This document shows positions 32,397 through 61,619 of a stretch of DNA of 64,000 bases, one piece after another. A model generated the notes under the pieces. That model was not told the origin of the DNA. It was given only the letters and a program-made list of their open reading frames with translations, and made no database searches. Made by a program: the position numbers and the translations under genes. The stretch covers positions 11,970 through 75,969 of the forward strand of contig JACRHB010000220.1 in the NCBI GenBank assembly GCA_016217725.1, given 5' to 3'. Source of the stretch: Nitrospirota bacterium. Its GTDB lineage: Bacteria > Nitrospirota > Thermodesulfovibrionia > UBA6902. Positions within the stretch are counted from its first letter, which is position 1. Every line of letters begins with the position of its first letter.

Positions 32397-32604
32397 TGTA
32401 GAAAGATTTCCAACCTGACAACTATGGCAAGCCATAACACAGAATACAATCCACCCGGAGAAATAATGCAGGAGGAAAATCTTGACTAGGCAGGTAACCC
32501 CGAACAGATACGCCACCCTTATTGAACGTCTTGCGGACATTATCCATTTCGCATGGACAACCGCGCCCGCTTCTTGATATTTTCGTCGTCAAATAGCATG
32601 ATAT

Positions 32605-36873: not shown

Positions 36874-36904
36874 AATTCCCTTCCCCTTTTCTTATTCAAA
36901 AATT

Positions 36905-39625: not shown

Positions 39626-39731
39626 CCCCTCTTTGACAAAGAGGGGTTAGGGGAGATTTTTAAATAATTTAATCTAAAAATCCCCCTACATCCCCAAATC
39701 CCCCTACATCCCCCTTTTCCAAAGGGGGATT
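39626..39731. repeat. CCCCTC/GAGGGG hairpin-cluster repeat, copy 2
   Basis: cccctctttgacaaagaggggttaggggagatttttaaat...aaaaatccccctacatccccaaatccccctacatcccccttttccaaagggggatt. Confidence 0.7.
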
Positions 39732-39837: not shown

Positions 39838-40692
39838 ATGATTGAGTCAAAGGTCATGAAAAAATACGACGAAGGATTAGGCACGGTTTATGAGAGGTTT
39901 ATGCTTAATGATTATTTCGAGCGCTTAATGAATTCCCACGACATAAAAAACATTCTTGAAGTTCCCTTTTACGGCATGACGGGTTTGACGGGCATCAACA
40001 GTGTCTATTTTGCCGGGAAGGGTTGCAGCATAGTATTAGTGGATACAAAAAAAGAAAACGTCTCGGAAGCGGAGAAGCTTTTGGGAGAGCTGCCTATCAA
40101 AGGGAAGTATGATGTTTTACTGCATGAAGAGCTTTCAAAGCTGCCTTTCGGCGACGACAGTTTTGATCTTGTATGGAACTTTGCTGCAATCTGGCATGTG
40201 AAGGACGCCGATCTATTACTGAAAGAGATGGCAAGGGTTTCATCCAATCTCTTATTGATCTTTATTCCAAATAAAAAACAAATAGGATATACTTTAAGGA
40301 AATATCTTATCGACAGGAAATTCTTTGATACGGTTGACGAATCGTGGATCAACCTTGATCGAATTACCGCTCATCTGAAGAAGCAGGGGATGAAGATAGT
40401 CGAAGAGGGGCTGATAGACATCCCTTTTTGGCCGGATACCGCGATCCCCGTTAAAAATATTTTTAAAAGGAATATTAAGAAAAGCACTGAATCTGACGAT
40501 AATAAGTCTACTGAAACAAAAAAGATATTTGACGGATTCTGGAATTGGGATATAATGAGCTATTATATGGGAAACAACCCCCGTCTGAAAGATAAGATGG
40601 AGAAATTGTCTTTTCTCGAAAAGATGCCGCTGCCTAAGAAAGTAAAGACTTTTTGGGCCCATCACTTGTACATTTTATGTTCAAAGCAATGA
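39838..40692 (+). CDS. class I SAM-dependent methyltransferase (Methyltransf_11/25-like)
   Basis: ...SIVLVDTKKENVSEAEKLL... and ...LPFGDDSFDLVWNFAAIWHV... pattern (motifs I-III); 284 aa. Confidence 0.55.
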   Translation: MIESKVMKKYDEGLGTVYERFMLNDYFERLMNSHDIKNILEVPFYGMTGLTGINSVYFAGKGCSIVLVDTKKENVSEAEKLLGELPIKGKYDVLLHEELSKLPFGDDSFDLVWNFAAIWHVKDADLLLKEMARVSSNLLLIFIPNKKQIGYTLRKYLIDRKFFDTVDESWINLDRITAHLKKQGMKIVEEGLIDIPFWPDTAIPVKNIFKRNIKKSTESDDNKSTETKKIFDGFWNWDIMSYYMGNNPRLKDKMEKLSFLEKMPLPKKVKTFWAHHLYILCSKQ

Positions 40693-40704
40693 GGAGGTAA
40701 AAAT

Positions 40705-41526
40705 ATGTCGGACCATACCAACCATGAGCATGATCACCATCATGACCACCACCAGGAACACGAGCATCACCATGAGCATGAGCACCAGCACGATCATCAT
40801 CATGACCATGATCATAAACCCGTAAAGGTTAAATTCAGAAGCTTCAAGATGGACAGGGCTTTTGCCTTTGACCCTAAGAAGGGCGAGAAGGGAATAATAA
40901 CCTATACTATAACGGAGCCTGCGAGGATAAGCATAAAGGTAATTAAAAAAGGGACGAGAGAGCTGTACCTTTCGACTATATTAAACTGGGAAATGCGCGA
41001 TGCGGGGACGCATACCGAGTACTGGGACGGTAAGGATTACAGCGGTAATATCATTGAAGACCTGTCTTCGGTTTTAATGGTGATGGAAGGAGAGCCGATG
41101 TCTACGTTCAAACCCGGCGCTTATTCCGTCGAAGGCCTGTCGGACGAAGAGATCATACACGGCCATAAATGGGGACATCCTCATAATTACTATCAGGAAG
41201 GCACAAATGTAATACCGGTGATCTCGATAACTTCCGTCAAAGACGGAGACGTTCTTTCAGGTATTGTGAAAGTTGAATCAAGGCTTGAAACGAGCGAAAG
41301 AGGCTACGGTGAAAAAGTCGGCTACGGCGTCAGGTACTATTTAAATAATATTCTTGTGACCGAAGAATTTTATGACTCAAAGAGCGACGGTAAATTTTCG
41401 TATGACATCGATACGACCGCCTTCCCCGACGGGGAATATATGCTGTACGTAGGGATGTGCGATCATCATCAGCACACAACCTCAAGGGGCTGCAAGGTTA
41501 AGATAAACAACAATTCCGGGAATTGA
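40705..41526 (+). CDS. His-rich (N-terminal HDHHHDHH..HEHEH..) Ig-like/FlgD-like beta-sandwich protein
   Basis: The N-terminal 37 aa are >60% His/Asp/Glu; the rest is paralogous to 42027..42737 (FDPKKGEKGIITYTITEPARISIKV / FDPALGKPATISYKLTKAGTIRLRI; YWDGKDYSGNIIED / QWDGRDASGNIIDN). Confidence 0.6.
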   Translation: MSDHTNHEHDHHHDHHQEHEHHHEHEHQHDHHHDHDHKPVKVKFRSFKMDRAFAFDPKKGEKGIITYTITEPARISIKVIKKGTRELYLSTILNWEMRDAGTHTEYWDGKDYSGNIIEDLSSVLMVMEGEPMSTFKPGAYSVEGLSDEEIIHGHKWGHPHNYYQEGTNVIPVISITSVKDGDVLSGIVKVESRLETSERGYGEKVGYGVRYYLNNILVTEEFYDSKSDGKFSYDIDTTAFPDGEYMLYVGMCDHHQHTTSRGCKVKINNNSGN

Positions 41527-41582
41527 GCGGGGGTTAAAGCCTGCGCGTTGATGCAATTGATTTTTTTAAAAGGAGACAACCG

Positions 41583-41861
41583 ATGAGCAATAACGTCATA
41601 CTTGCAAATAATGAATGGATTGAGGTCACGCCGAGGGTAAAGGTTTCAGGCCCCCACCATGAGATTTTTTTAGAAGGGGTTGTCAGCACCCAGCCGGAGA
41701 ATGACGACGAAGACATCAGATACGAAAACGGCAGGATCTTTGTAAGGCGCAGAAACGACAAGGACGACGACAGACACTTTGTCATAACTTACAGGGTCAG
41801 CGTTTACGGGCAGGAGACTTTCACGAACACACGGGTTATCGTGAGAAAGCCGTCTAAATAG
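41583..41861 (+). CDS. hypothetical protein (92 aa)
   Basis: ORF with a plausible RBS (aaggagacaaccgATG) between the two His-rich/Ig-like paralogs. Confidence 0.4.
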   Translation: MSNNVILANNEWIEVTPRVKVSGPHHEIFLEGVVSTQPENDDEDIRYENGRIFVRRRNDKDDDRHFVITYRVSVYGQETFTNTRVIVRKPSK

Positions 41862-41896
41862 AGTCTGTTTATAAATGGCATAAAACGTTCAACAAG

Positions 41897-41977
41897 GTGT
41901 CATTCCCGCAGTCTGTTGAGCGGGAATCCAGAGAATACAAAGATAGATTCCGGCTTAAGGACTGCCGGAATGACAGA
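41897..41977. mobile_element. MITE-like GTCATTCCCG element, copy 3
   Basis: ggtgtcattcccgcagtctgttgagcgggaatccag...gattccggcttaaggactgccggaatgacagac. Confidence 0.55.
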
Positions 41978-42026
41978 CACGCAAATTGAATTAATACACA
42001 GACACTAATCAAGGAGAGATTTATCT

Positions 42027-42737
42027 ATGAGCATAGATTCAAAAGAAAAAAATGAAGGGACGAATAAGCTGCATAAGATAAAGATAAATACGCCGGATAC
42101 GGGATATGAGCCTTTCCCGGTATATATAATCAACAGGTCTACATATGAAGCGCTGAATTTCGATCCGGCGCTCGGCAAGCCTGCGACCATCTCGTATAAG
42201 CTGACTAAGGCCGGCACGATACGACTGAGAATTGCAAGAAGGGATAACCCCGGGCTGATACTCTTAACCCTTCTGGACTGGACCGAACAGCCGTTCGGTG
42301 AACATAAAGTCCAATGGGACGGCCGTGACGCGTCGGGGAATATCATCGACAACAAAAAAATATTGATACACTTTGACGCCAAAGACCAGGCCTTAGGCGG
42401 GAAACATCGGGAGCATGACAAACTCAACTGCGGTGATCCGAAGCTTATTATCAAGACAAATCCGGAGACGCTCCGGAACATTAAAGGTAATTTAGAGCTC
42501 AGGGCTTCTTTTTCCGACGGACCGGACCGGATAAAATGGAGCTCCGGCTGCGAGGTCAAATATTTTATTGATTACGGTCTGATTAAAAAGGAAGTCTTTC
42601 AGAAAGTTCAAAACGAGTTCTCTCTTGTAATAGACACTTCAAAGTTAAGCGCCGGCGAGCATCTCATCACTGTTAATATCAGCGACATGAACGATCACGT
42701 GGGAACCGCCGGTTTAAGAATTACCGTCGCCGGTTAA
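42027..42737 (+). CDS. Ig-like/FlgD-like beta-sandwich protein, paralog of 40705..41526, lacking the His-rich N-terminus
   Basis: Shared blocks as listed for 40705..41526. Confidence 0.6.
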   Translation: MSIDSKEKNEGTNKLHKIKINTPDTGYEPFPVYIINRSTYEALNFDPALGKPATISYKLTKAGTIRLRIARRDNPGLILLTLLDWTEQPFGEHKVQWDGRDASGNIIDNKKILIHFDAKDQALGGKHREHDKLNCGDPKLIIKTNPETLRNIKGNLELRASFSDGPDRIKWSSGCEVKYFIDYGLIKKEVFQKVQNEFSLVIDTSKLSAGEHLITVNISDMNDHVGTAGLRITVAG

Positions 42738-42943
42738 AAAATTACGTATGCCTAAGAACGGGCACATGATCAGATTTGGAGCTGGAGCACCATAAGCATA
42801 CTCATATAATCTCGTCGCTTCACATGTGACGCTGCCTGAAATATCAGGAAGCGGCTTGAGCTAACGCCGTAAAAGAAATTGCACATATCCTTCCCGGCTG
42901 CAGATATGTATATGTGACCGAGAGGGCGAAGCATTGCCGATTA

Positions 42944-43099
42944 CCGTGATCCGTGTCCGTTTAACGTGACCGTAAAAGAGGAAGGATCAATGAACAATGT
43001 GCAATTAACAATTAAAATCTCGCTTCCGCAATTGCTCATTGATAATTGTTCATTGTTAATTGTTTTTACGGACACGTTAACCGGACACGGTTCACAAGA
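42944..43099. repeat. ~155-bp long hairpin element (GTGTCCG / CAATGAACAATTG words) immediately upstream of cbiM; partner copy at 46001-46165 downstream of cbiO
   Basis: Outer arms cgtgatccgtgtccgtttaacgtgaccgtaaaa / ttttacggacacgttaaccggacacggttcac; inner palindromes caattaacaatt and caatgaacaat/attgttcattg. Confidence 0.7.
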
Positions 43100-43111
43100 A
43101 AGGAATACCCC

Positions 43112-44134
43112 ATGCATATCCCCGACGGTTATCTGAGTCCGCAAACGTATATACCTCTTTACGGGATAATGCTCCCGGTCTGGTACTGGGGCTCCAGGAT
43201 ATTAAAGAAGACTTTAAATGCGCGGCAGATACCTTTTTTGGCCCTCGGCGCCGCTTTTTCATTCGTCATCATGATGTTCAATATCCCGATACCCGGCGGC
43301 TCGACGGGGCATGCAGTCGGCGCTGCATTGATCGCAATTCTGTTAGGACCGTGGGCGGCGCTTATGGCCGTATCCATGGCGCTCATAATACAGGCGCTGC
43401 TTTTCGGCGACGGAGGGATTACCGCAATAGCGGCGAACTGTTTTAATATGGCTTTTATAATGTCTTTTTCAGGATATTATATTTATAAGCTTCTGAGTTT
43501 AAATTCCGGCTCCAATATCGCCCGAAGGGTCTTTGCTGCAAGTGTGGCGGCGTATATATCTATAAACCTGTCCGCCTTTTTTACCGCTGTAGAATTTGGA
43601 ATTCAACCGTACATTGCGCACAAGCCGGACGGCACTCCTTTGTACGGGCCTTACGGCTTGAACGTAGCGGTCCCGATAATGACGATTGAGCACCTTGCAT
43701 TTTTTGGATTTGTAGAGGCGCTGGTGACGGGATTGGTAGTCGCTTACATTGCGAAGACCGAGCCGGAGATGCTGAACATCTCCACTCCTGCGTTACAGAC
43801 GGCAGCAGACCGGCCGGCTTTTTCAAAGACGGCGAAAAGGCTCTGGATCGGACTCGCCGTACTTATTATTCTGACGCCCCTCGGGCTTATCGCCTCAGGA
43901 ACCGCATGGGGAGAATGGGGAGCGGAGGATCTGCTCGCAATATTCGGCTTTGTGCCTCAGGGGTTGAAAGGGCTTTCTAACGTTTGGCATTCTTTTTTCC
44001 CGGATTACTCGGTTCCGGGGATGGAGGGTCCCTTAATGCTTGCAGCGGGATATATCCTCTCCGCGCTTATCGCTACGGGTTTGATAGTGTTGACGGCCTT
44101 CGTCATCAGCAGGATAATGTTCAGAGGAAGATAG
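43112..44134 (+). CDS. cbiM: ECF-type cobalt/nickel transporter substrate-capture component CbiM/NikM with an extra C-terminal 2-TM (CbiN/PDGLE-like) extension; start at MHIPDGYLS
   Basis: Hallmark N-terminus MHIPDGYLS; ~7 TM in the first 245 aa; additional ~95 aa with 2 TM. Confidence 0.85.
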   Translation: MHIPDGYLSPQTYIPLYGIMLPVWYWGSRILKKTLNARQIPFLALGAAFSFVIMMFNIPIPGGSTGHAVGAALIAILLGPWAALMAVSMALIIQALLFGDGGITAIAANCFNMAFIMSFSGYYIYKLLSLNSGSNIARRVFAASVAAYISINLSAFFTAVEFGIQPYIAHKPDGTPLYGPYGLNVAVPIMTIEHLAFFGFVEALVTGLVVAYIAKTEPEMLNISTPALQTAADRPAFSKTAKRLWIGLAVLIILTPLGLIASGTAWGEWGAEDLLAIFGFVPQGLKGLSNVWHSFFPDYSVPGMEGPLMLAAGYILSALIATGLIVLTAFVISRIMFRGR

Positions 44135-44135
44135 A

Positions 44136-45065
44136 TTGTCTTTCCATTGGCTTAAAACAGACCACAGCCTTCCACCGGCTCCTCAGTCAAACGGAGCTCC
44201 AAATAAGAAGGGATACCTCGAGAAGACCCTCAGGGAGATCACGTCGTTTTTTGTCAACGGGATATTCTCGGAGGAGACAACCGCAAAGGCGGGATTTCTT
44301 CAGGCGCTGGACCCCAGGGCCAAGGTTTTTACCCTGGGGATTTTCGTTATAGCGGTCACCCTGTATAAAAACATCTACATCCTACTCGGCGCATACGCAT
44401 TTACTATTTTATTAGCGCATCTTTCAAAAATCGGCATCGGATTTTTTCTGATCCGAGTCTGGCTTTTTATCCCGCTGTTTTCAGGGATCATAGCCCTTCC
44501 GGCGGTGCTTAATATCTTTGTCCCGGGGGATCCGCTTGTTGACCTTGTTACATTAGAAAAAGAGATTATGCTTGGCCCGCTGAAAATTCCTCAGACCGTC
44601 TCGGTGACGAAACAGGGACTTTTATCGGCGTCCGTATTTGTTATGAGAGTTGCAACGTCGGTATCCCTTGTAGTGCTTCTGACCCTCACGACAAAGTGGC
44701 CTCATATTCTGAAGTCGCTGAGCGTATTCAGGGTGCCCCAGTTCTTCACCTTTATTCTCGGCATGACGTACAGGTACATACATCTGCTATTGCGGCTTAT
44801 TGAAGACGTGCATCTTGCGCGGCGAAGCAGGACTATTGGAAAGGAGAAGGCGAGCTCGGGACGGAAATGGATCATATCACAGATAAGGTTTGTCATGAAG
44901 AAGTCGCTCAGCACGGGGGAGCAGGTTTATTCGGCTATGGTTTCAAGGGGATTTATGTATGAGCTGAAGACAGCCGATAATTTCAAGATAAAGCCTATTG
45001 ATTATGCCTGGTCGGCGTTTGCCGTCACTGTAACGGCTGTCACACTGGTGTTAAATTGGATATAG
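44136..45065 (+). CDS. cbiQ: ECF transporter transmembrane (T) component CbiQ
   Basis: 309 aa; 5-6 TM; Arg-rich cytoplasmic loop (...HLARRSRTIG...) typical of EcfT/CbiQ coupling helices. Confidence 0.8.
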   Translation: MSFHWLKTDHSLPPAPQSNGAPNKKGYLEKTLREITSFFVNGIFSEETTAKAGFLQALDPRAKVFTLGIFVIAVTLYKNIYILLGAYAFTILLAHLSKIGIGFFLIRVWLFIPLFSGIIALPAVLNIFVPGDPLVDLVTLEKEIMLGPLKIPQTVSVTKQGLLSASVFVMRVATSVSLVVLLTLTTKWPHILKSLSVFRVPQFFTFILGMTYRYIHLLLRLIEDVHLARRSRTIGKEKASSGRKWIISQIRFVMKKSLSTGEQVYSAMVSRGFMYELKTADNFKIKPIDYAWSAFAVTVTAVTLVLNWI

Positions 45066-45117
45066 ATTCAAATAAGGAGGCTGAACGCCTCCTTGAATTA
45101 TCTTTGGGAAGTTTGAT

Positions 45118-45999
45118 ATGGACATAGACATCAAATTAGATTCGGAGCTCGACAATATCTTTGAAGTCAGAAACCTTCATTACTCTTTCCTGGGAAGATA
45201 TCCGGCGCTGTGCGACGTTTCCTTCGATGTTAAAAGAGGAGAAAGGGTGGTCGTGCTCGGGGCCAACGGCTCCGGGAAGTCAAGCCTCATGAACCTCCTT
45301 GACGGACTGGTTTTCCCACAGAAGGGCGAGATCAGATTCATGGGGCGGGAGATAAGCGAGCAAAATCTGAAGGATGAGAATTTCAACAGGTTCTTCAGGA
45401 ACAAGGTGGGTTTTGTATTCCAGAATTCCGACGTCCAGCTCTTTTCGAGCACTGTTTGGGATGAAATCGCGTTCGGCCCTTTGCACCTCGAGCTGCCTCA
45501 CGATGAGGTGAAAGCGAGGGTTGAAGATATATCGGGCCTGTTAGGGATAAAGAAATTGTGGGAAAGGGCGCCGTACCAATTGAGCGGCGGCGAGAAGAAA
45601 AAGGTAGCCATTGCATCCACGGTCGTCGTCAATCCGGACGTCCTTTTATTGGACGAGCCGACAAACGGCCTGGACCCGAGGAGCCAGGCCGAGCTTGTCG
45701 ATTTCCTGCAGGAGCTGTATCAGGCGGGCAAGACGATAATAATCTCCACTCATGACCTGAACATCGCCAAAATGATCTCGGACCGCGCGATAGTCCTGAA
45801 TGAATCCCATACCGTTGAGGCTGAAGGAGCCACCCGCGACATCCTTGAAAACACCGAGCTCCTTCTGAAAGCCAATCTCATCCATGAGCATATACATTGC
45901 CACGACGGCGAGATCCACAGGCACCCTCACGGCCACGTCGGAGAGCACGACCACGAGCACGGCCGCGGCCATGCGCACAAACACAGTCATAAGCATTAA
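45118..45999 (+). CDS. cbiO: ECF transporter ATPase CbiO with a C-terminal His-rich tail
   Basis: Walker A GANGSGKSS, signature LSGGEKKKVAIA, Walker B LLLDEPTNGLD; the C-terminal ~40 aa HEHIHCHDGEIHRHPHGHVGEHDHEHGRGHAHKHSHKH. Confidence 0.9.
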   Translation: MDIDIKLDSELDNIFEVRNLHYSFLGRYPALCDVSFDVKRGERVVVLGANGSGKSSLMNLLDGLVFPQKGEIRFMGREISEQNLKDENFNRFFRNKVGFVFQNSDVQLFSSTVWDEIAFGPLHLELPHDEVKARVEDISGLLGIKKLWERAPYQLSGGEKKKVAIASTVVVNPDVLLLDEPTNGLDPRSQAELVDFLQELYQAGKTIIISTHDLNIAKMISDRAIVLNESHTVEAEGATRDILENTELLLKANLIHEHIHCHDGEIHRHPHGHVGEHDHEHGRGHAHKHSHKH

Positions 46000-46000
46000 A

Positions 46001-46165
46001 ACTCATACGTGTCCGGTTAGCGTGTCCGTGTCCGTAAAACAATTATCAATGAACAATTACCAATGAGCAATTGCGGCAATAGTTTTTTAATTGTTAATTG
46101 CACATTGTTCATTGATCATTCCTCTTTTACGGTCACGAAAAACGGACACGGATCACGAAATCGGT
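46001..46165. repeat. ~160-bp long hairpin element downstream of cbiO (partner of 42944-43099)
   Basis: acgtgtccggttagcgtgtccgtgtccgtaaaacaattatcaatgaacaatt...aattgttaattgcacattgttcattgatcattcctcttttacggtcacgaaaaacggacacggatcacg. Confidence 0.7.
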
Positions 46166-46169: not shown

Positions 46170-46889
46170 ATGCCTTCCGTTGCCGGAATAAAAGCGAGAG
46201 ACGGTTATCTGTTTTTCGTCAACGCCTTGACCGAAGATCCCAGGAACACATCGGCAGTCGTCGAATTGAGCGACCGCTGCGGGGCCTTGGTCCTTACGAG
46301 CAATGAGAAGCAATTGCAGAGATTAAATAACGTCCTCAATAAGTGCGTATCCTGTACACTGAATAAGACGGATGACTTAAGCGATGACCTCGTCAACAAG
46401 GCCGTCTCTTTTCTGAAGAAAGAATTTCATGAGGAGCCGTCGTATAAGACCAAACCTCTGACCTTCCTCCTTCTCGTGGTCGGGACGAACAGTGGCGCGC
46501 AGGGGCGACTTGAATACATCTATATAAGGCACAGGGTTTCGGAAAGGCTTGAAAAAGAGGGCGCGCGGGAGTTCGTGACAACGTTTGACGTAGAGCCTCC
46601 CGTGCCTGCGCATAATGTCTTTTACGGCGATTCGGACATTATCCAGTATCTTGCGCAGCAGGCGGACGGAGAGAATATCCCGATGAATGCCGTCAAGATC
46701 CTGGCCTGTCTTTCAATCCCCGAAGCTTACTATAAGGATAGCGCATTACAGTCAGGCGTCAGCATGGCGTTGCTCTCTGCTGAAAACGGTTTCGAATGGG
46801 TCAGGACGGATGAAGTTCTTTCATTGGCCGACAAAGCTGAAAAAGTTAATTCAATGCTTGTCGAAGGGCTGAATGATATATGGACATAA
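46170..46889 (+). CDS. hypothetical protein, weak proteasome alpha/beta-fold-like N-terminus
   Basis: VAGIKARDGYLFFVNALTED...VVELSDRCGALVLTSNEKQ loosely resembles the proteasome-subunit pattern TAVGIKGKDGVVLAVEK...KIFKIDDHIGCAFAGL; no Thr1. Confidence 0.35.
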   Translation: MPSVAGIKARDGYLFFVNALTEDPRNTSAVVELSDRCGALVLTSNEKQLQRLNNVLNKCVSCTLNKTDDLSDDLVNKAVSFLKKEFHEEPSYKTKPLTFLLLVVGTNSGAQGRLEYIYIRHRVSERLEKEGAREFVTTFDVEPPVPAHNVFYGDSDIIQYLAQQADGENIPMNAVKILACLSIPEAYYKDSALQSGVSMALLSAENGFEWVRTDEVLSLADKAEKVNSMLVEGLNDIWT

Positions 46890-47557
46890 TCGAAGGCATA
46901 GAAAAAAGAAAGAGCATCAGGGCCTTCAAGCCTGATCCGGTGCCGAGGAAAGCCCTTGAAAAAGTCTTGCAAGCCGCTGTTGCCGCGCCTTCCAAAGGCA
47001 ATTCGCAGATATGGGAGTTCGTCGCCATTACCGGTAATGAGCTGAAAGATATCAAGGTGATGCTCGGGGAGCTGCTTAAAACCGACTTTATCCCTTTAAT
47101 GAAGCTAACGGATGAAGAAGCGCCAAGCCCCGCCCTTGAAAAGGCAAAGATCAGGAGCAGCCGGAATAAAGAAGAGATGTCAAAGATATTAAATCCGATG
47201 GGCCTTGATTTTGATGACTTTATGCTTGAAGGGACTTTCAGATTCTTCGATGCCCCCGCAGCCGTTATGGTTTTCATAGAGGATATTTATTTGAAAAACC
47301 TTCCCCATCTTTTAAGTGTCGGGGCGGCGGTCCAAAATATGCTGTTGTCCGCGCAGACGCTCGGGTTAGGCACGTGCTGGATAGGAGGCGTATGGAGATA
47401 TACAAAGCAGATAAGAAAGATCCTTGGAATACCTGATAACAAGATGCTGGTCTCATCGGTAGCCATAGGATATCCTGATAACGACTCTCCGATAAACAAA
47501 TATAAATCAGGCAGGGACTCTATCGACGATTTGGTTCAATGGAAGGGATTTGAATAA
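46880..47557 (+). CDS. nitroreductase-family (FMN-dependent) oxidoreductase
   Basis: N-terminal RKSIRAFKPDPVP...L..AAVAAPSKGNSQIWEFV and C-terminal CWIGG nitroreductase signatures. Confidence 0.85.
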   Translation: MDIIEGIEKRKSIRAFKPDPVPRKALEKVLQAAVAAPSKGNSQIWEFVAITGNELKDIKVMLGELLKTDFIPLMKLTDEEAPSPALEKAKIRSSRNKEEMSKILNPMGLDFDDFMLEGTFRFFDAPAAVMVFIEDIYLKNLPHLLSVGAAVQNMLLSAQTLGLGTCWIGGVWRYTKQIRKILGIPDNKMLVSSVAIGYPDNDSPINKYKSGRDSIDDLVQWKGFE

Positions 47558-47660
47558 ATCCCCCTACATCCCCCTTTTTCAAAGGGGGACCTTCCCCTCT
47601 AACAAGAGGGGTTAGGGGTGTGTTCCCCTCTTTTGCAAAGAGGGGTGAGGGGAGATTTTC
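47556..47660. repeat. CCCCTC/GAGGGG hairpin-cluster repeat, copy 3 (starts inside the nitroreductase stop codon)
   Basis: aaatccccctacatccccctttttcaaagggggaccttcccctctaacaagaggggttaggggtgtgttcccctcttttgcaaagaggggtgaggggagattttc. Confidence 0.7.
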
Positions 47661-47683
47661 AGATCAAATAAAGGAGCAGTATT

Positions 47684-48400
47684 TTGTCTCTGACAATATT
47701 ATTAAGATCGCCTGACGGCATCGTCATGGCGGCTGACAGCAGGGTGACGGAGGGCTATACTCTGCAGGGACCGAAGACCAAGGACGACTCCGTTAAGTTC
47801 ATTCGGTTGAGTGATGATTTCGGGGTCATGACGCACGGTCTTTACGACATAGGCACTGACGGGATCAATGCATTAAAAGAGAAGGTCGGCGGAAGCGGGA
47901 ATGGGATTTCATCTTTAGCAGAGCTTATCGGCAATGCGAAGAAAATCTTTGCAGAGGTAAATAATGAATGGTCCGTGAAGAACCCGGAAGTAAAACGAAG
48001 GGACAAAGATACCGGTTTCATAATTGGCGGGTTCGACAGACGGGAAGCGGCGTTTAAAGTCTATAACTTTGAAAGCCCTGAATTTGCTCCGAAACCGGTG
48101 GCCGGCAATTTCTTCATCGCAGGCCAGTGGCAGATAGCCAGGTTTTTGCTGATGAAATTGAACGGCGGTAAAAAGAATATCAATTCCCTTAAAAAGCTGT
48201 CAGCCGTTCTGCTTACGGCAACGGCTTCGGTCGACAAAACAGTCGGCGGCCCCATGCGTATTGCCTCCATTACGGCATCAGAAGGATTTCGATGGGTCGA
48301 TGACGAGGAGATGAAAAAGCTGGCGGACTTTAATGCGTCGTTCCGCAGGGTATTTCAGGAGACCCTCGAAGCGTCTCTGAACGCAGTTTCAAAAAATTAG
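47684..48400 (+). CDS. proteasome beta-subunit-like Ntn-hydrolase fold protein (HslV/20S-beta/Anbu-like)
   Basis: N-terminus MSLTILLRSPDGIVMAADSRVTEGY matches the proteasome-type consensus T-[IL]-h-h-x-x-x-DG-hhhAAD-[ST]-R-x-T; 238 aa. Confidence 0.6.
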   Translation: MSLTILLRSPDGIVMAADSRVTEGYTLQGPKTKDDSVKFIRLSDDFGVMTHGLYDIGTDGINALKEKVGGSGNGISSLAELIGNAKKIFAEVNNEWSVKNPEVKRRDKDTGFIIGGFDRREAAFKVYNFESPEFAPKPVAGNFFIAGQWQIARFLLMKLNGGKKNINSLKKLSAVLLTATASVDKTVGGPMRIASITASEGFRWVDDEEMKKLADFNASFRRVFQETLEASLNAVSKN

Positions 48401-48611: not shown

Positions 48612-50120
48612 ATGAACGTGATCTTGGTTCAACCCGCGACTTCGGACAGGGGATTTATTCATCTGGGATTGGGCTTTATTGCAGCCTCCCTGGAGCAAAG
48701 GGGGCATAAGGTAAGCATCCTCGATCTCGGGATAGAAGGCGAGTCCTCAAAAAAGATAAGAAGGATAATCCAGGAGGCGGCCCCGGAAGTGGCGGGGATA
48801 ACGGCGCTTACCCCTACTTATCCGACGGCGCTCAGGATGGCGCAGTTGATAAGGGAGATAAATCCCCGGTGCATAACCGTCTTCGGAGGGACTCATCCCA
48901 CTATATTGACCGAGGAGGTCCTTAATGAGCCCTTCGTGGACATTGTGGTAAGGGGCGAAGGGGAGATAACCATGTGCGAAATATTGGACGCCCTGAAGGA
49001 CGGAAAAGGCCTTTCGAGTATTTCAGGCATTGTCTATAAGGAAAACGGGAAAACGGTCTATAACCCCGACAGGCCTTTCATAGAAGACCTGGACACTCTC
49101 CCGCCGATACCCTGGCATCTCTTTAAAGTGGAAAAATATACCGGCAACCTGAACGGGAGAAGGGCGGTGGGCCTCTCCGCTGCCAGGGGATGTCCTTTCA
49201 GTTGTGTCTTTTGCTACAGAGGCCCGGCTGCCGGCAAGGTCGTAAGGTACTGGAGCCCTGAAAGGGTCGTAAAGGAGGTCAAGCGCGTTAAGGAAAAATA
49301 TAATATAACGGCCTTCCACTTCTGGAACGACGTATTTACTTACGACAAAAAGTGGGCGATCACCCTGTGCGATATGATCATAAAGGAGAAACTGGACATT
49401 GAATGGGACTGTCAGACCAGGGCGGACCTGATCAATGAGGAAGTATTGAGGAAGATGAAAGAGGCGGGCTGCACCGCGATAATGTTAGGCGTGGAGAGCG
49501 GGAGCAATGAGATCCTGAAGCACGTGAACAAGAAGCTGACCAAAGAGCAGATATATGACTCCTTCCAATTGCTCCATCAGGTGGGTTTTGAGACCACCGC
49601 AACTTTTACAATGGGTCTTCCCTGGGACACCAAAGAGACCATCCAGGAAACCATCGATTTCGCCAAGGCGATAAACCCGAGTTTTGCGATGTTCTACGTA
49701 GCCACTCCGTTCCCCGGCTCCCCCATCTGGGAGATCTGCCTTCAGAAAGGGATACCGCTTTCGAGAGACTGGGAGAATTACAGGATCATTCCTTTTGAGA
49801 TAGACCTCGATAAATTCGCCCCTGTCTTTGATACGTCCAGATTGTCCGTAGAGGATTTAAAGAGGTTCATCAAGACCGCCCAGATAGAATTTCAGGTCGG
49901 CAGATTTAAAAAGGGGCAGAGATTAAGGGGTCTGAAAAATATCTACGAGATCTTCGCCTTGATATTCAGACGGAGCAAATCGGTGACAAAGCTGATGCAA
50001 TTGATTTTCAGGGTGCTCGGGGATACGCTCTATCTCATCAGAATAAAGTGCAGAAGTGCAAAAGTGCAAAAGAGCAATAGCGCAGAAGAGCAGAAGAACA
50101 AAAGTGCAAAAGAGCAATAG
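48612..50120 (+). CDS. B12-binding domain radical SAM protein; the C-terminal tail is encoded by a word-repeat
   Basis: MNVILVQP...HLGLGFIAASLEQRGHKVSILD B12-like domain; CxxxCxxC (ARGCPFSCVFCYR); the last ~25 aa (KCRSAKVQKSNSAEEQKNKSAKEQ) read through the GTGCAGAAG repeat. Confidence 0.85.
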   Translation: MNVILVQPATSDRGFIHLGLGFIAASLEQRGHKVSILDLGIEGESSKKIRRIIQEAAPEVAGITALTPTYPTALRMAQLIREINPRCITVFGGTHPTILTEEVLNEPFVDIVVRGEGEITMCEILDALKDGKGLSSISGIVYKENGKTVYNPDRPFIEDLDTLPPIPWHLFKVEKYTGNLNGRRAVGLSAARGCPFSCVFCYRGPAAGKVVRYWSPERVVKEVKRVKEKYNITAFHFWNDVFTYDKKWAITLCDMIIKEKLDIEWDCQTRADLINEEVLRKMKEAGCTAIMLGVESGSNEILKHVNKKLTKEQIYDSFQLLHQVGFETTATFTMGLPWDTKETIQETIDFAKAINPSFAMFYVATPFPGSPIWEICLQKGIPLSRDWENYRIIPFEIDLDKFAPVFDTSRLSVEDLKRFIKTAQIEFQVGRFKKGQRLRGLKNIYEIFALIFRRSKSVTKLMQLIFRVLGDTLYLIRIKCRSAKVQKSNSAEEQKNKSAKEQ

Positions 50121-50212
50121 TGCAGCGCCGGGAAGACTGACTTTCATTGTTTTCCCTTTTGCACTTCTGCACTTTTGTACTTTTGCACTTCTGCACTTTT
50201 GTACTTTTGCAC
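50048..50212. repeat. long hairpin of GTGCAGAAG/TGCAAAAG words (left arm coding, right arm reverse complement)
   Basis: gtgcagaagtgcaaaagtgcaaaagagcaatagcgcagaagagcagaag... / ...ttttgcacttctgcacttttgtacttttgcacttctgcacttttgtacttttgcac. Confidence 0.7.
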
Positions 50213-50233
50213 TAAAGAATCAAGAAAAATTTA

Positions 50234-51448
50234 ATGGACTACAACAAATTAAAAGAAGCCGTCATCACTGAAATCGATAAGCTGGCGGAAGAGATGAAGG
50301 CCGTTGCAAAGGCCATTCATGAAAAACCCGAAATAGGTTATCAGGAATACGAAGCCTCACGGCTCCTCTGCGGCTTTCTCGAAAAAAACGATTTTAAAGT
50401 GAAGCGCAATATCGCAGGGATGGAGACGGCTTTTGCCGCCTCCTATCCTGAAAAGGCGGACGGTCCGACAATCGCCTTGTTGGCCGAATATGACGCCCTG
50501 CCCGGCCTCGGGCACGGATGCGGACATAACCTCATCGGCACTGCGAGCGTCGGGGCTGCCGTCGGATTAAGTAAGGTTTTACCGAAGCTGAAAGGAAGAA
50601 TAGCTGTAATGGGCTGTCCTGCGGAAGAGGCCGGGATAGACAACGCAGGGGGGAAGGTCCGGCTGATCAAAAAAGGATCATTCAAAGATATCGACGCCGC
50701 GTTCATCTTTCATCCCTTCCCCATGACGACGGTCGGGGGAGAGACCACAACGCTGCTCGGGCTTGAATTTAATTTTAAAGGTAACCCCGCACATGCCGCA
50801 GGAAATCCCTGGGACGGGATCAACGCGCTGGACGGTGTATTGCTGACCTTCAACGCGATCAACGCCCTCAGGCAGCATATACGCGACGGCGTGCGCATTC
50901 ACGGCATCATAACCCACGGAGGCGACGCCCCGAATATAGTGCCGGAAAAGGCGTCCGCGCGTTTCTTTCTCCGCACGGAGAATAAAGAGTCTCTGCTCGA
51001 GATAATTCAAAAGGTCAAGGCCTGCGCCGAAGGGGCGGCGACGGCGACGGGGACCAAGCTTGAGGTCAATACTTTCTGCAATCTCTATGACTCAATGAAG
51101 AGCAATTCCGTTCTCGCAAGTATCCTCGAAAAGAACCTGAACGCACTCGGCTTGAGCGTTGAAGGCAGGAAAAAGGGGAAAGGCTCCACGGATTTCGGAA
51201 ACGTGACAAGGGTTGTGCCTGCCTGCGAGCTGGGCCTCAGGCTCGGAAACGGCATCGTCCCGCACACGAGGGAGTTTTTGCACGCGGCGAATTCCGAAGA
51301 GGGCTTCAAGGTAATGATGCAGGGAGCAAAGGTGCTGGCCTTAAGCGCGCTGGACCTTCTCTACTCGGACGGCTTACTTGAGAAGGCGAAAAAGGAATTT
51401 GAAGGAGTGCAGAAGTGCAACAGTACAAAAGTGCAAAAGGAAAAATAA
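50234..51448 (+). CDS. M20-family amidohydrolase (M20D; hippurate hydrolase / aminobenzoyl-glutamate utilisation-like)
   Basis: 404 aa; ...ALLAEYDALPGLGHGCGHNLIGTASVGAA... metal-binding region; the C-terminal tail (VQKCNSTKVQKEK) is encoded by the repeat. Confidence 0.85.
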   Translation: MDYNKLKEAVITEIDKLAEEMKAVAKAIHEKPEIGYQEYEASRLLCGFLEKNDFKVKRNIAGMETAFAASYPEKADGPTIALLAEYDALPGLGHGCGHNLIGTASVGAAVGLSKVLPKLKGRIAVMGCPAEEAGIDNAGGKVRLIKKGSFKDIDAAFIFHPFPMTTVGGETTTLLGLEFNFKGNPAHAAGNPWDGINALDGVLLTFNAINALRQHIRDGVRIHGIITHGGDAPNIVPEKASARFFLRTENKESLLEIIQKVKACAEGAATATGTKLEVNTFCNLYDSMKSNSVLASILEKNLNALGLSVEGRKKGKGSTDFGNVTRVVPACELGLRLGNGIVPHTREFLHAANSEEGFKVMMQGAKVLALSALDLLYSDGLLEKAKKEFEGVQKCNSTKVQKEK

Positions 51449-51517
51449 AGAAGGACCATCTTCCGGAAGCCGGTCTTCTGAACTTTTGATCTTCTGCTCT
51501 TTTGCTCTTTTGCACTG
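51407..51517. repeat. GTGCAGAAG/TGCAAAAG word-repeat hairpin, copy 3
   Basis: gtgcagaagtgcaacagtacaaaagtgcaaaagg...tcttctgctcttttgctcttttgcac. Confidence 0.65.
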
Positions 51518-51526
51518 TTTGAAAAA

Positions 51527-52711
51527 TTGATAAAAATTTTTCTAATTGGCTGGTTCGGCGCGGGGAACGTCGGGGATGAGGCGATACTCCTTACGGAATT
51601 GTTGGCGATAAGAAACAGGATAAAGGGAGCAAGGTTTTATATTTTATCTTTTGATAAAGAGAAGACCAAAAAACTTACCGGCGAAATTTCCGAAGTCGAA
51701 AGGATCATTGAGCTCGGCGCCAAAAAGAGATTTTTTAGATCGGATTTCAGGGGGTTGCTGAGCGCGTTCAAAAATTCCGATGCGGTCGTAATAGGCGGTG
51801 GCGGCATTTTTCAGGACCTTTACAATTACTATCCGGTCCCGTTTTTTACCTTAATGGCCCTTATGGCGAGACTATTCAGGAAGCTGCTTGTGCTTCACGC
51901 CGTCGGGATAGGCCCCCTTAACAAGCTTATCAGCAGGAGATTGTGCAGGACGGCCGCCGGGCTCGCGCACATGATCTCTGTAAGGGACTTTGAATCAAAA
52001 GAGCTTTTAAAAGAAATCGGGGTAAACAAAGAGATACACGCAGCGGCGGACCCTGTCTTTTTGCTCAGGGACCTGCTCGGGGAAAAGATCGAAAGACTTA
52101 TGGACAGGCATAAAACCGGCAAAGAACGGCCCACAGTCGGGATCTGCATCCAGAACCTCCTTTCCTGGAGCCGGGATAATAAGCAGGCGCTTGCCGCTGC
52201 GCTCGACGCACTTGCAAGAGAAAGAAATACGCGCCTCGTGTTTATACCTTTCGGCGTTTACCCGGACGGATGGTTCCGAAAAGAAGATACCGAGCCTATA
52301 GACGTTATCGCCTCCAAGGAGCTGGCAGGCCTGCTGAAAAGCGAGCATTCCATTATGACGTCGCATACGACCCCCGAAGAGACCATGGCCGTTATCGGGG
52401 GGCTGGACCTTGTGATCAGCATGAGACTTCACGGAATAATCATGGGCCTCAGTATGGGTGTGCCGGTCCTCGCGCTTACATACGCCGACGAGTCAAAGAT
52501 AAGCAACCTCATGAAGCGGGTAGGGCGTGAAGAAGACGTCTTCCATGTAAACGATCTGGATGCTGAAAAATTACTGAGCAGGCTAAAAGCCGTTCTTGCA
52601 AGAAATGACGAATTCAAGAGGGACCTAAGAGAAAAGGTAATTCATTTAAAGAGGGAAGCTGAAAAAAGTTTTGAGCTATTGTCGGGAAGATTATCGCTGT
52701 CGCCCCATTAG
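51527..52711 (+). CDS. polysaccharide pyruvyl transferase family protein (CsaB/WcaK-like)
   Basis: IFLIGWFGAGNVGDEAIL...AVVIGGGGIFQD... and ...LVISMRLHGIIMGLSMGVPVLAL matching the PS_pyruv_trans family. Confidence 0.8.
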   Translation: MIKIFLIGWFGAGNVGDEAILLTELLAIRNRIKGARFYILSFDKEKTKKLTGEISEVERIIELGAKKRFFRSDFRGLLSAFKNSDAVVIGGGGIFQDLYNYYPVPFFTLMALMARLFRKLLVLHAVGIGPLNKLISRRLCRTAAGLAHMISVRDFESKELLKEIGVNKEIHAAADPVFLLRDLLGEKIERLMDRHKTGKERPTVGICIQNLLSWSRDNKQALAAALDALARERNTRLVFIPFGVYPDGWFRKEDTEPIDVIASKELAGLLKSEHSIMTSHTTPEETMAVIGGLDLVISMRLHGIIMGLSMGVPVLALTYADESKISNLMKRVGREEDVFHVNDLDAEKLLSRLKAVLARNDEFKRDLREKVIHLKREAEKSFELLSGRLSLSPH

Positions 52712-54236
52712 CCGGGACCTTCCGGGTAATTATCTGCGCGTCGGCGTAATGGTGTTTTTTTTCCCCATCGCCCTGTATCTGTTTACCCTCGCGCCGACCG
52801 TGATCTGGGGGGACAGCGCAAGGTTCGCGCTGGAAGTCAAAAACCTGTATCTCGGCTACAGCGCGGACAGCCACCCGCTTTTCATTGTGCTGGGAAAGGC
52901 CTTCTCTTTCCTGCCGTTTGAATTGGCATACAGCCTCAATCTGCTCGCAGCGGTATCGGCCTCCGCAGCGGTATTTCTCGTCTATCTTATTCTCATTGAG
53001 ATAACGCGATCTAAAATATCCGCCGTTGTCGGCGCCCTCGCCTTATGCGTATCGCATGCCTTCTGGCTCCATGCGGTAACGGCTGAAGTCTATGACCTGA
53101 ACGCGGCGTTTGTCGCGGCAGTGATATTATGCCTGCTGAAGTGGAGGAAAGACCCGGACCGCCGCGCTCCGTTATATGCTGCCGCTTTGTTATTCGGACT
53201 GGGTATGACCAACCATCGGATCATCCTGATCGATCTGATAGGCATAGTAATATTCGTGCTTGTCACAGACTTTAAAATTATCAAAAGGGGCAGGGCGCTG
53301 CTGTCGGTCTTTATTTCATTCTTCGCCGGCAGCCTTTTACTTGTCTACGTCATAATTCAGAAGATGCTTGATAAGCCCGTTACGGTAGTAGCCGACACGT
53401 TCTCCGCAGAGGGATACAAAGACGCCGTCGTCAAATATTCTCCGAAAATTCTTGAAGAGATAGGAATGTATCTTTCATACCTTTTTTATCAGTTCCCCCT
53501 TGCCGGGTTCATCCTCGGCCTTGCAGGGATTGTCGCTCTTTTCAGAAAAGATAAAAAACTCGCCCTGCTCTTTTGCCTGCTGATAATTATGAACTGGCTT
53601 CTATTATTCAAGCTCGGCCCGAGTTACGGTCATTCAAAATACACCTTCTATATCTCGGCATATACGGTCTTCTCGATATTGATCGGCTACGGTTTCTTCT
53701 CACTGAAAAATTACCTGGAGGACAAAGGGCGCTCCGTTGAGAAGCTCTCTCTTATAACGGCCGCATCAGTTGTTCTGCTGCCTGCGCTTCTTTATAATGT
53801 CACTCCGCACCTGACAAAAAGGCTCGGCATCGACCTTCTTCACGCAAGGCCGGTCCCCTACAGGGATAATGATGAATTTTTCCTGAACCCCTCAAAAAGA
53901 GGCTACACCGGGGCGGAGAGGTATGCCAAAGAAGCCTTTGAGACGGCCTCGGCAGGCTCGGTAATAATCTCGGATTATACGCCTTATACGGTGCTTAAAT
54001 ACCTGCAGGATGTAAAGGGCGTAAGGACCGACGTCCTTCTCATCAGGATCGCGGGCCACGGCGGCGTCATCCCGAAGATTTTATCCGAATACTCCGGTAA
54101 GAGAGACATATATTTGGCCGATACGGGCATTCCAAAGTCTTACAAAATGCGCTACCTGGCAAAAAAGTACGCCATCGTCCGGCAGGGCGTATTGCACAAG
54201 CTCATCCAAAAGGAAGTCCCTCCAGCTACCAATTAA
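52671..54236 (+). CDS. DUF2723/TMEM260-like GT-C fold membrane protein (probable start at MVFFF, 52749)
   Basis: ~11 TM helices; the conserved acidic first loop (VIWGDSARF) is typical of PMT/ArnT-like GT-C enzymes. Confidence 0.55.
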   Translation: MSYCREDYRCRPISRDLPGNYLRVGVMVFFFPIALYLFTLAPTVIWGDSARFALEVKNLYLGYSADSHPLFIVLGKAFSFLPFELAYSLNLLAAVSASAAVFLVYLILIEITRSKISAVVGALALCVSHAFWLHAVTAEVYDLNAAFVAAVILCLLKWRKDPDRRAPLYAAALLFGLGMTNHRIILIDLIGIVIFVLVTDFKIIKRGRALLSVFISFFAGSLLLVYVIIQKMLDKPVTVVADTFSAEGYKDAVVKYSPKILEEIGMYLSYLFYQFPLAGFILGLAGIVALFRKDKKLALLFCLLIIMNWLLLFKLGPSYGHSKYTFYISAYTVFSILIGYGFFSLKNYLEDKGRSVEKLSLITAASVVLLPALLYNVTPHLTKRLGIDLLHARPVPYRDNDEFFLNPSKRGYTGAERYAKEAFETASAGSVIISDYTPYTVLKYLQDVKGVRTDVLLIRIAGHGGVIPKILSEYSGKRDIYLADTGIPKSYKMRYLAKKYAIVRQGVLHKLIQKEVPPATN

Positions 54237-55517: not shown

Positions 55518-55579
55518 CTGCATCCGGCAACGGAGCTGTTTTTATGATAATAAAATCAAGCTGAACAAATAACCGCGAT

Positions 55580-56863: not shown

Positions 56864-57023
56864 AGCCAATTTGTAGAAATTTGCGGCTGATATCTTTTCC
56901 TCCTGCTGGTTCAATCTTGTAGATTGAACCAACCGTTTAACAGACATTAAATATAAAGGTTCAAACTACAAGCCTGAACCAGCAGAGTCGGCTGTTAGCT
57001 GATAGCTGTCAGCTTTTTACATC

Positions 57024-58637: not shown

Positions 58638-58638
58638 C

Positions 58639-60057: not shown

Positions 60058-60064
60058 AGTTGTT

Positions 60065-60165
60065 ATCCCCTCTCCCTTGATGGGAGAGGGTTAGGGGGAG
60101 GGTGAATCAACAGAATGTCTGAATCACCCTCCCCTTAATCCCCTCCCATCAAGGGAGGGGAAAAG
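60065..60165. repeat. CCCCTC/GAGGGG hairpin-cluster repeat, copy 4 (~45-bp arms)
   Basis: cccctctcccttgatgggagagggttagggggagggtgaatcaacagaatgtctgaatcaccctccccttaatcccctcccatcaagggagggga. Confidence 0.7.
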
Positions 60166-60205
60166 ATAAGAGACACATAGGAACGTCTGCGGAATTGAAG
60201 TTAAA

Positions 60206-61510: not shown

Positions 61511-61575
61511 TTGATTATTTGCCACAGAGAACACAGAGGACACAGAGGAAAATAGAAGATGAGCGCGTGCAGAGA

Positions 61576-61619
61576 TACCCTCTCCCTTGACGGGAGAGGG
61601 TTAGGGAGAGGGTGAATCA
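61576..61619. repeat. CCCTCTCCC/GGGAGAGGG hairpin (single arm of the family) plus upstream (ACAGAGGA)n tandem words at 61522-61550
   Basis: accctctcccttgacgggagagggttagggagagggtgaatcat. Confidence 0.6.

Follow-up and report, generated by a model that had tools for sequence, protein, structure and literature searches.

Three adjacent genes in a 64,000-nucleotide stretch of a Nitrospirota bacterium contig (the window) form an invariant module within a conserved cluster of about 20 genes. They are ORF1 (46170..46889), an FMN nitroreductase-family gene (NTR; 46880..47557) and ORF3 (47684..48400), all present on the + strand at the coordinates given by a first-pass annotation of the DNA. Family profiles and a structural model show ORF3 to be a predicted proteasome-fold Ntn hydrolase, with residues equivalent to Thr1, Asp17, Arg19, Lys33 and Gly47 of the proteasome. 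ORF1, judged on the same kind of evidence, is a putatively inactive relative of ORF3 and no true alpha subunit. The reading that we favor, with a probability of about 0.6, is that ORF3 is a Ser-nucleophile hydrolase, ORF1 its non-catalytic partner, and the pair a likely substrate-specific amidase or peptidase of the pathway encoded by the cluster.

Fold and active site of ORF3

ORF3 encodes a protein of 238 residues from a TTG start, which is conserved in the family, and its N-terminus reads MSLTILLRSPDGIVMAADSRVTEGY. A Shine-Dalgarno sequence, AAAGGAG (47670..47676, + strand), is read directly 7 nt before the TTG, and GGAG-type sites are found at the equivalent place in other loci. The gene had been annotated as proteasome-beta-like, with a comparison to the Pfam family PF00227 proposed as a check. 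ORF3 alone scores 18.4 bits against this profile (gathering score 22.4), with only residues 7–53 covered; 29 of the 34 family members match it at an E-value of 0.01 or better, the best at 5.3e-11. Single-sequence searches of the PDB with either ORF1 or ORF3 returned nothing significant, and family profiles alone worked, that of ORF3 matching archaeal beta subunits and Anbu at E ~1e-4. The AlphaFold2 (AF2) model of ORF3 has the four-layer alpha-beta-beta-alpha arrangement of the proteasome fold, and its top structural matches are all members of the proteasome family, in agreement with the profile and with the initial assignment. A PADLOC search gave no match, and PHROGs yielded weak matches only (phrog_5990, and phrog_1040 of the HslV family).

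The predicted nucleophile is Ser2 (codon 47687..47689, + strand), at the position of Thr1, which is Ser in 38 of 38 family sequences with an intact N-terminus; the other residues were counted in 44 sequences. It aligns with the Thr of the Anbu MTYAV and beta subunit MTTTV motifs. Thr4, the other candidate left standing by the first-pass annotation, was rejected, being variable in the family and wrongly spaced. An in-frame stop lies one to nine codons 5′ of the start in all loci; inspection of the N-terminus revealed no propeptide, and there is no room for one in any locus. Asp18 and Arg20, the equivalents of Asp17 and Arg19 (codons of Asp18-Ser19-Arg20, 47735..47743, + strand), are invariant (44/44), as are Lys38, which aligns with the Anbu and beta subunit Lys33 (codon 47795..47797, + strand; 44/44), and Gly52, equivalent to Gly47 (44/44). 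These residues and Ser2 are thus unchanged across 44 ORF3 sequences with identities down to 40%. Just before Lys38, next to the active site, there is a conserved loop specific to the family, TEGYTLxGPxxxDxSxKF, with T22, G24, L27, G29, P30, D34 and S36 invariant and a pLDDT below 50 in the model.

Further along the chain, the invariant Gly147-Gln148-Trp149 (codons 48122..48130, + strand; 44/44) replaces Gly128-Ser129-Gly130 of the 20S beta subunit, the corresponding Anbu segment in the alignment being G-E-T/H. This invariant Gln in place of Ser129, like the score of ORF3 alone under the Pfam gathering threshold, is a counterpoint to the explanation proposed here. In 20S proteasomes, Thr-to-Ser substitution lowers activity, so catalysis in ORF3 may differ.

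ORF1 is a degenerate paralogue of ORF3

ORF1 encodes 239 residues from an ATG start (N-terminus, MPSVAGIKARDGYLFFVNALTED). By sequence it matches nothing in Pfam or the PDB; it is recognizably similar to ORF3, both by BLASTP (E 1e-7) and by hhalign of the two family profiles (97.5%, E 8.6e-12; the alignment spans the 109 C-terminal columns). Its AF2 model (pLDDT 73.7, pTM 0.72) shows a proteasome-like order of strands and helices from residue 2, and the top Foldseek matches are without exception 20S alpha subunits (E 5e-8), at a TM-score of ~0.5 that, together with the pLDDT, makes the confidence of this model moderate. The similarity to ORF3 and the structural matches to 20S subunits bear out the proteasome-fold signal suspected in this gene.

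The conserved nucleophile and the equivalents of Asp17 and Lys33 are all missing from ORF1. Among 20 unique sequences, position 2 is S, G, P or A, and position 18 is N in 15, D in four and S in one. The first-pass description of the protein as alpha-like or inactive therefore holds in its second half: ORF1 is predicted to be inactive, and we reject the idea of a true alpha subunit because every alpha subunit is more distant from it than ORF3 and it has no alpha N-terminal extension. Neither is it a decaying pseudogene; its median dN/dS of 0.22 points to purifying selection.

The nitroreductase and the spacer before ORF3

The gene between the two, correctly recognized from the outset as a nitroreductase, encodes 225 residues on the + strand, its first 10 nt overlapping the end of ORF1. 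It matches PF00881 over profile positions 1–167 of 167 (106.2 bits, cut-off 23.5; E 2.7e-30), and its best PDB match is 3gr3 (E 1.9e-23); in NCBIfam it reaches the cut-off of no specific subfamily or equivalog. NTR lies immediately 5′ of ORF3 in every related locus and has a median dN/dS of 0.11. The gap between NTR and ORF3 is 126 nt in the window as against 11–18 nt in most loci, and contains a spacer specific to the window (47558..47669, + strand) with three short GC hairpins (fold energy −57.1 kcal/mol, z −3.3). The motif CCCCTCT..AGAGGGG occurs twice in this spacer (47594 and 47625) and a further time at 39626.

A conserved cluster of about 20 genes

The genes for ORF1, NTR, ORF3, M20 amidohydrolase and pyruvyl transferase follow one another in this order in all related contigs whose flanks are long enough. 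ORF1 accompanies ORF3 in all of these, intact in 18 of 19, and is otherwise found only on ORF3-bearing contigs or on short fragments. The upstream cluster genes (39838..45999, + strand), identified by Pfam matches and collinear in related loci, usually with NikR, encode a SAM methyltransferase, a His-rich Ig-like protein, a 92-residue protein, an Ig-like protein of 236 residues, CbiM-PDGLE, CbiQ and CbiO, the last with a His-rich tail and the three making up a CbiMQO metal transporter; a HypB-type His-rich prefix is also found in this segment. The downstream genes (48612..63138, + strand), whose order is kept in related loci, encode a B12 radical SAM protein, the M20 amidohydrolase (TIGR01891, 216 bits, cut-off 153.75), a polysaccharide pyruvyl transferase, a TMEM260-like GT-C protein, a PaaK-like ligase, a further B12 radical SAM protein, a 537-residue protein, another B12 radical SAM protein, a second PaaK-like ligase and a PMT-like protein. 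The 537- and 236-residue proteins have no matches in the PDB and only weak Ig-like matches in a relaxed Pfam search. The cluster contains no unfoldase and no Pup system. Nothing relevant to the module or the cluster turned up in searches of the literature. The shared gene order across these metagenome-assembled genomes may in part stem from transfer of the cluster as a whole and, to that extent, less from a specific coupling of ORF1, NTR and ORF3.

The ORF3 family is rare: of 185,579 species genomes, three carry it. Some 900 relatives were found. The next (tier-2) relatives of the family adjoin mobile-element and toxin-antitoxin genes, and here, too, a degenerate partner lies upstream. Taken singly, these partners are not significantly similar to ORF1 or ORF3; a profile built from four of them is. 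Among third-tier relatives, P0072 and P0243 are without a large upstream partner. Searches of phage and plasmid records by tblastn and a scan of IMG/VR found nothing.

Comparison with known proteasome homologues

The closest structure to ORF3 is Anbu (PDB 5nyj, 5nyf and 5loy), and the ORF3 model has an extended C-terminal helix like that used by Anbu for dimerization. The sequence similarity is marginal (E ~1e-4, 12–17% identity): Anbu chains match the ORF3 profile at only 1.2e-4 to 5.3e-4, which places ORF3 outside the Anbu sequence cluster, and at least 190 representative clusters with different signature motifs are nearer (E of 1e-10 or better). The Anbu nucleophile is Thr instead of Ser. 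Anbu is widespread (PMC8665760, Table 1), in contrast with the very rare ORF3 family, and its operon encodes ATP-grasp, transglutaminase and Alpha-E proteins (PMC5666114). Pfam gene tables of five loci contain none of these three, either in the window or within ~8 kb on either side; the ORF3 locus has a dedicated inactive paralogue and a nitroreductase in their place. The absence of Pup, Mpa/ARC, HslU and Anbu-operon partners noted initially for the window is borne out, and for the Anbu-operon partners it extends to the flanks of those five loci.

The 20S proteasome shares with ORF3 the fold and the positions of the catalytic residues and, in archaea and actinobacteria (PrcA/PrcB), likewise has an active Ntn subunit and a homologous inactive one encoded together. 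It differs in that ORF1 is nearer to ORF3 than to alpha subunits and is without the alpha N-terminal H0 extension (the first strand of the model is at residue 2), in the propeptide of the beta subunit, in the Ser nucleophile of ORF3 and in the nitroreductase gene between ORF1 and ORF3; no Pup, PafA or Mpa genes were found around the locus. HslV and BPH are, like ORF3, bacterial proteasome-fold Ntn peptidases, but the locus has neither the adjacent HslU AAA+ ATPase nor the compact ~175-residue subunit of HslV. Connectase (DUF2121), a proteasome-fold enzyme that works without an unfoldase in a specific role other than degradation, is comparable in this respect; its hallmarks, the lack of H1 and H2 and two helices inserted between S3 and S4, are not seen in ORF3.

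Fuchs, Alva and Lupas (2021) described 22 uncharacterized families of proteasome homologues, among them WPH, PMI and PHD in group II (PMC8665760). Group II families resemble ORF3 in being bacterial, ~240 residues long and closest to Anbu and 20S, with an M-T/S start without propeptide and a Thr1/Ser1-Asp17-Lys33 triad (PMC8665760). The taxa of PHD (Proteasome Homolog of Deltaproteobacteria) match those of the ORF3 family, and its representative OGP72033.1 is absent from the accessions returned for that family. That survey found no informative genomic context or co-occurrence for the 22 families (PMC8665760), unlike the strict context of ORF3.

Discussion

We propose that removal of formyl-Met by deformylase and methionine aminopeptidase would bare Ser2, Ser being favorable as second residue, and that the free N-terminal Ser would attack an amide bond in the manner of HslV, Anbu and 20S beta subunits. 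ORF1 is a lineage-specific duplicate that lost its catalytic residues, was retained by purifying selection and may serve as non-catalytic partner of ORF3. The pairing would most likely involve the long C-terminal helix and the C-terminal half, since this part is common to ORF1 and ORF3 and is used by Anbu to dimerize. The lack of an unfoldase ATPase suggests that the pair is no general protein-degradation machine; it would more likely act on a product or protein of the cluster pathway as a substrate-specific amidase or peptidase. ORF1 and ORF3 are probably, then, a pathway-specific heteromeric enzyme of this kind.

It is unlikely that ORF3 is instead a solitary, homo-oligomeric housekeeping peptidase of the Anbu/HslV type, with ORF1 and the nitroreductase in unrelated jobs. 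Anbu, BPH and HslV are homo-oligomers, Anbu is the closest structure, and P0072 and P0243 do without the partner; yet the companion of ORF3 is its own paralogue, evolves under purifying selection, co-occurs with it wherever the flank suffices and recurs in tier-2 relatives, and a housekeeping role would call for a far commoner family. Rather improbable, too, is a connectase-like, sequence-specific transpeptidase or ligase, and no hydrolase, acting on one cluster protein, for which speak the Connectase precedent of a specific ligase without unfoldase (PMC7980362, PMC8665760), the invariant family-specific loop at the active site and the fixed pathway context.

A non-enzymatic role of the pair as a proteasome-fold scaffold or chaperone, similar to the PAC/Pba assembly chaperones, would fit the loss of all catalytic residues in ORF1 and the replacement of Ser129 in ORF3, but we give it a very slim chance: the invariance of Ser2, Asp18, Arg20, Lys38 and Gly52 is hard to account for otherwise and favors predicted catalysis in ORF3. 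Membership of 47684..48400 in a different Ntn family (class II glutamine amidotransferase, or penicillin acylase/ceramidase type), which had been named as the outcome that would overturn the assignment, could appeal to the sub-threshold single-sequence score over residues 7–53, the N-terminal likeness being then superficial. The family profile, PF00227 and structure matches all point to the proteasome, and we reject this alternative as scarcely credible.

The favored heteromeric amidase or peptidase could have a wider form, which we advance tentatively and hold to be doubtful in full. ORF1 and ORF3 might represent an independent bacterial two-subunit proteasome-like particle, with a Ser1 catalytic subunit and a dead paralogue paired via Anbu-like C-terminal helices. 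The particle would be functionally linked with a flavin nitroreductase and serve only a pathway that involves nickel or cobalt and is rich in B12/radical-SAM proteins; the recurring gene pair in mobile-element-linked relatives would then mark a new class of heteromeric bacterial proteasome homologues whose genomic context can be traced.

Of dozens of bacterial proteasome homologue families, nothing but the sequences is known. The ORF3 family offers a handle missing from the surveyed homologues: an inactive paralogue and, between the two genes, a flavoenzyme, both of them obligatory, a fixed place in a conserved cluster of ~20 genes, itself undescribed, an invariant Ser and a conserved TTG start. 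If ORF1 and ORF3 assemble, the combination of active and inactive subunits that characterizes the 20S proteasome would have arisen a second time independently, and the use of Ser or Thr by proteasome-fold enzymes could be studied in a tractable system.

ORF3 and its nucleophile

The three genes lie on the forward strand exactly where the first-pass annotation had placed them: ORF1 (46170-46889; 239 amino acids, ATG start), the nitroreductase-family gene (NTR, 46880-47557; 225 amino acids), which shares 10 nt with the end of ORF1, and ORF3 (47684-48400; 238 amino acids), whose TTG start is preceded at 7 nt by the Shine-Dalgarno sequence AAAGGAG. The ORF1 and ORF3 proteins exactly match HZA14_12905 and HZA14_12915, labelled hypothetical in a Nitrospirae MAG. 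ORF3 alone scores 18.4 bits against the Pfam Proteasome family, under the gathering score of 22.4. Its family is small (34 clusters among 5.8 billion proteins; 3 loci in 185,579 species-representative genomes), and PF00227 is the sole Pfam match for 29 of these clusters. The family profile matches archaeal beta subunits (E 8.4e-5) and aligns end-to-end with Anbu (E 1.2e-4). AlphaFold gives a confident model (pLDDT 86.8, pTM 0.84), whose top Foldseek matches are only 20S alpha/beta and Anbu chains (E 1e-11). ORF3 is thus a member of the proteasome-like superfamily, as its beta-like N-terminus had suggested.

The choice between Ser2 and Thr4 as nucleophile, previously left undecided, falls in favor of Ser2, which is present in all 38 family sequences with an intact N-terminus, is spaced from Asp18 as Thr1 is from Asp17, and is matched by the HMM alignments to the Thr in MTYAV of Anbu and in MTTTV of the M. 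jannaschii beta subunit; Thr4 is not invariant in the family. Asp18, Arg20, Lys38, and Gly52 are invariant among 44 unique sequences. An in-frame stop lies 1-9 codons 5' of the start in every locus and therefore no propeptide is possible. Serine is a favorable second residue for formyl-Met removal, which would expose it as a free N-terminal nucleophile, like in HslV and Anbu. In the best 150 of 918 wider-clade representatives, this position is Thr in about two-thirds and Ser in one-third, so that a Ser nucleophile per se has precedent, in agreement with the wording “Thr1/Ser1” used for proteasome homologues by Fuchs et al. 2021 (PMC8665760). The family also has an invariant specific loop, TEGYTLxGPxxxDxSxKF, between the second and third strands (modeled with low confidence), an invariant Gly-Gln-Trp at the place of 20S beta Gly128-Ser129-Gly130, and an Anbu-like C-terminal helix of 31 residues in the model. 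The median dN/dS is 0.19. We predict ORF3 to be a Ser1 proteasome-fold amidase/peptidase, with a probability of about 0.9.

The TTG start codon (47684-47686) is used in 25 of 26 loci (the window and L001-L025), ATG being found only in L021, and is kept across sequences down to 40% identity; ORF1 and NTR start mostly with ATG. This conserved weak start may set dosage. The NTR-ORF3 spacer is unusually long in the window. A short GC hairpin motif, CCCCTCT..AGAGGGG, occurs twice in it (47558-47669) and once just 5' of the cluster's first gene (39626-39646). It was not found in the equivalent spacers of other loci, and looks like a small dispersed REP-like element.

ORF1, a degenerate paralogue

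ORF1 has no sequence match in Pfam or the PDB; its proteasome-fold signal comes from family profiles and the structural model. Its C-terminal half shows significant similarity to that of ORF3 (BLASTP E 1e-7; family profiles 97.5%, E 8.6e-12). Its model, of moderate quality (pLDDT 73.7, pTM 0.72), shows the proteasome strand/helix order, with the first strand beginning right at residue 2, and Foldseek retrieves 20S subunits only (E 5e-8, TM about 0.5). Among 20 unique sequences, position 2 varies between S, G, P, and A, Asn predominates at position 18, and no equivalent of Arg19 or Lys33 is conserved. These degenerate catalytic positions, together with a median dN/dS of 0.22, make ORF1 very likely a maintained non-catalytic paralogue. 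Of the earlier description “alpha-like or inactive”, the second half is borne out, whereas the first holds by analogy only: the family matches alpha subunits at E about 1, is far nearer to ORF3, and lacks the N-terminal extension of 20S alpha subunits. In one draft MAG contig (L006:4371-5073, on the contig that also holds L017), two ORFs of 117 and 64 amino acids stand in place of a whole ORF1 orthologue, which may reflect an assembly/frameshift error or a recent inactivation; the gene is intact in the near-identical locus L005, from a sister assembly.

A conserved gene cluster

Related loci were gathered by exact-protein look-up and scans of species genomes and metagenomes, and the window proteins were mapped onto them. 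The resulting synteny is the decisive new finding on these genes. In all loci NTR is the gene directly 5' of ORF3, as a rule separated from it by 11-18 nt. It encodes a full-length member of the nitroreductase family (PF00881, 106 bits, E 2.7e-30; median dN/dS 0.11), for which a search assigned no specific subfamily. Wherever a contig extends far enough, ORF1 precedes NTR; of the 19 distinct contigs, 18 carry it whole, and a single draft one has it in fragments. The wider order is methyltransferase, His-rich Ig-like protein, 92-aa protein, Ig-like protein, (NikR), CbiM-CbiQ-CbiO, ORF1, NTR, ORF3, M20 amidohydrolase (TIGR01891, above cut-off), polysaccharide pyruvyl transferase, TMEM260-like GT-C, PaaK-like ligase, an unknown 537-aa protein, B12 radical SAM, and a second PaaK-like ligase. 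This order is kept in Nitrospirae/Thermodesulfovibrionia, Deltaproteobacteria, and Pseudomonadota MAGs, with ORF3 identity down to 40%. ORF1 (28-55% identity) and ORF3 (40-69%) are the fastest-evolving genes, most others showing 54-93%. The reported absence of Pup, HslU, and Anbu-operon partners extends from the window to the related loci examined, and no AAA+ unfoldase occurs in either.

The protein encoded at 40705-41526 has a His/Asp/Glu-rich N-terminus of ~45 residues (weak HypB-prefix match), followed by weak FlgD_ig and Big_7 Ig-like matches, and the CbiO ATPase (45118-45999) has a His-rich C-terminal tail; from these stretches, a role of the cluster in handling nickel or cobalt seems indicated. 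Intergenic regions of the cluster contain tandem arrays of a short repeat unit, arranged in inverted pairs and reaching into the called 3' ends of preceding ORFs. Examples include a pair with a 14-nt unit upstream of ORF1 (46038-46120), (AAAGTGCA)n opposed to (CTTTTGCA)n in the gap that separates the radical-SAM gene from M20 (50045-50213), and a similar pair after the M20 gene (51406-51522).

Elsewhere in the window, the minus strand at 35389-39313 encodes an 802-aa fusion of PqqD (RiPP recognition element), radical SAM, SPASM, and SAM methyltransferase, adjoined by a B12-binding radical-SAM gene. This RiPP-maturase-like machinery diverges from the cluster and was not found in the flanks examined of related loci. 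A low-GC island lies at 24000-32400 (GC 0.35-0.41, against about 0.48 outside it). Its genes include those for an SNF2-family helicase, a DndB-like protein, and a radical-SAM protein, beside several ORFs without Pfam match, and it is possibly a horizontally acquired defence island.

The wider clade

The 918 representative clusters come from an exhaustive profile search with E up to 1e-3; 19 of them reach 1e-30 or better. In the next tier (150-200 bits), neighbors are phage, integrase, recombinase, restriction-modification, or toxin-antitoxin genes; around the next-closest relatives (L028:7315-8929, L029:7255-8919, L033:2991-4403, and L035:4345-5735) they include phage capsid, integrase, serine recombinase, MmeI/Dam, or MazE-PIN genes. 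PADLOC gave no match at these loci, and L028 and L029 carry an additional downstream ORF of ~70 amino acids. In all four contexts read, a gene of 219-249 amino acids abuts or overlaps the relative on its upstream side. The profile of these four partners, which have neither Ser nor Thr at position 2, matches the ORF3 family over the full length (hhalign 94.2%, E 1.1e-7, 202 columns) and the ORF1 family weakly (E 5.6e-4). A degenerate upstream partner with a predicted active subunit downstream therefore appears general in the clade, judging from these few sequences.

Discussion

Several other readings of ORF3 can be weighed. That it belongs to another Ntn family disagrees with its profile, Pfam, and Foldseek matches, all of proteasome type. 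A connectase-like ligase would share the fold. Connectase, Anbu, HslV, BPH, and 20S subunits each have defining features that were tested and are lacking in ORF3, so it is none of these. A non-enzymatic scaffold would suit ORF1 and its degenerate positions; in ORF3 the corresponding residues are invariant. Finally, ORF3 could act alone, and the more distant relatives P0072 and P0243 have no large partner; in the cluster, ORF1 and NTR accompany it. That ORF1, NTR, and ORF3 work together as a module of the cluster is the likely reading. Anbu protomers pair through a C-terminal helix (PMC5666114), and by analogy ORF1 and ORF3 might pair physically via their shared C-terminal half and helix, a tentative proposal at somewhat less than even odds.

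Fuchs, Alva and Lupas 2021 (PMC8665760) described 22 families, and ORF3 may or may not fall inside one of these, such as PHD (Proteasome Homolog of Deltaproteobacteria), whose representative, OGP72033.1, is not among the ORF3-family matches in a comparison of accessions only. Those authors explicitly report no informative genomic context for their families; therefore what is new here, as far as the searchable literature shows, is that an inactive paralogue is obligatory, that a nitroreductase gene intervenes, and that both the cluster and the TTG start are conserved. Since there is no unfoldase, the substrate of the ORF1-ORF3 pair is probably a specific one from the pathway. The metal transporter, His-rich proteins, B12 radical SAM, adenylating enzymes, and glycosyl/pyruvyl transferases lead us to speculate that the cluster encodes a metal-dependent envelope or cofactor pathway.
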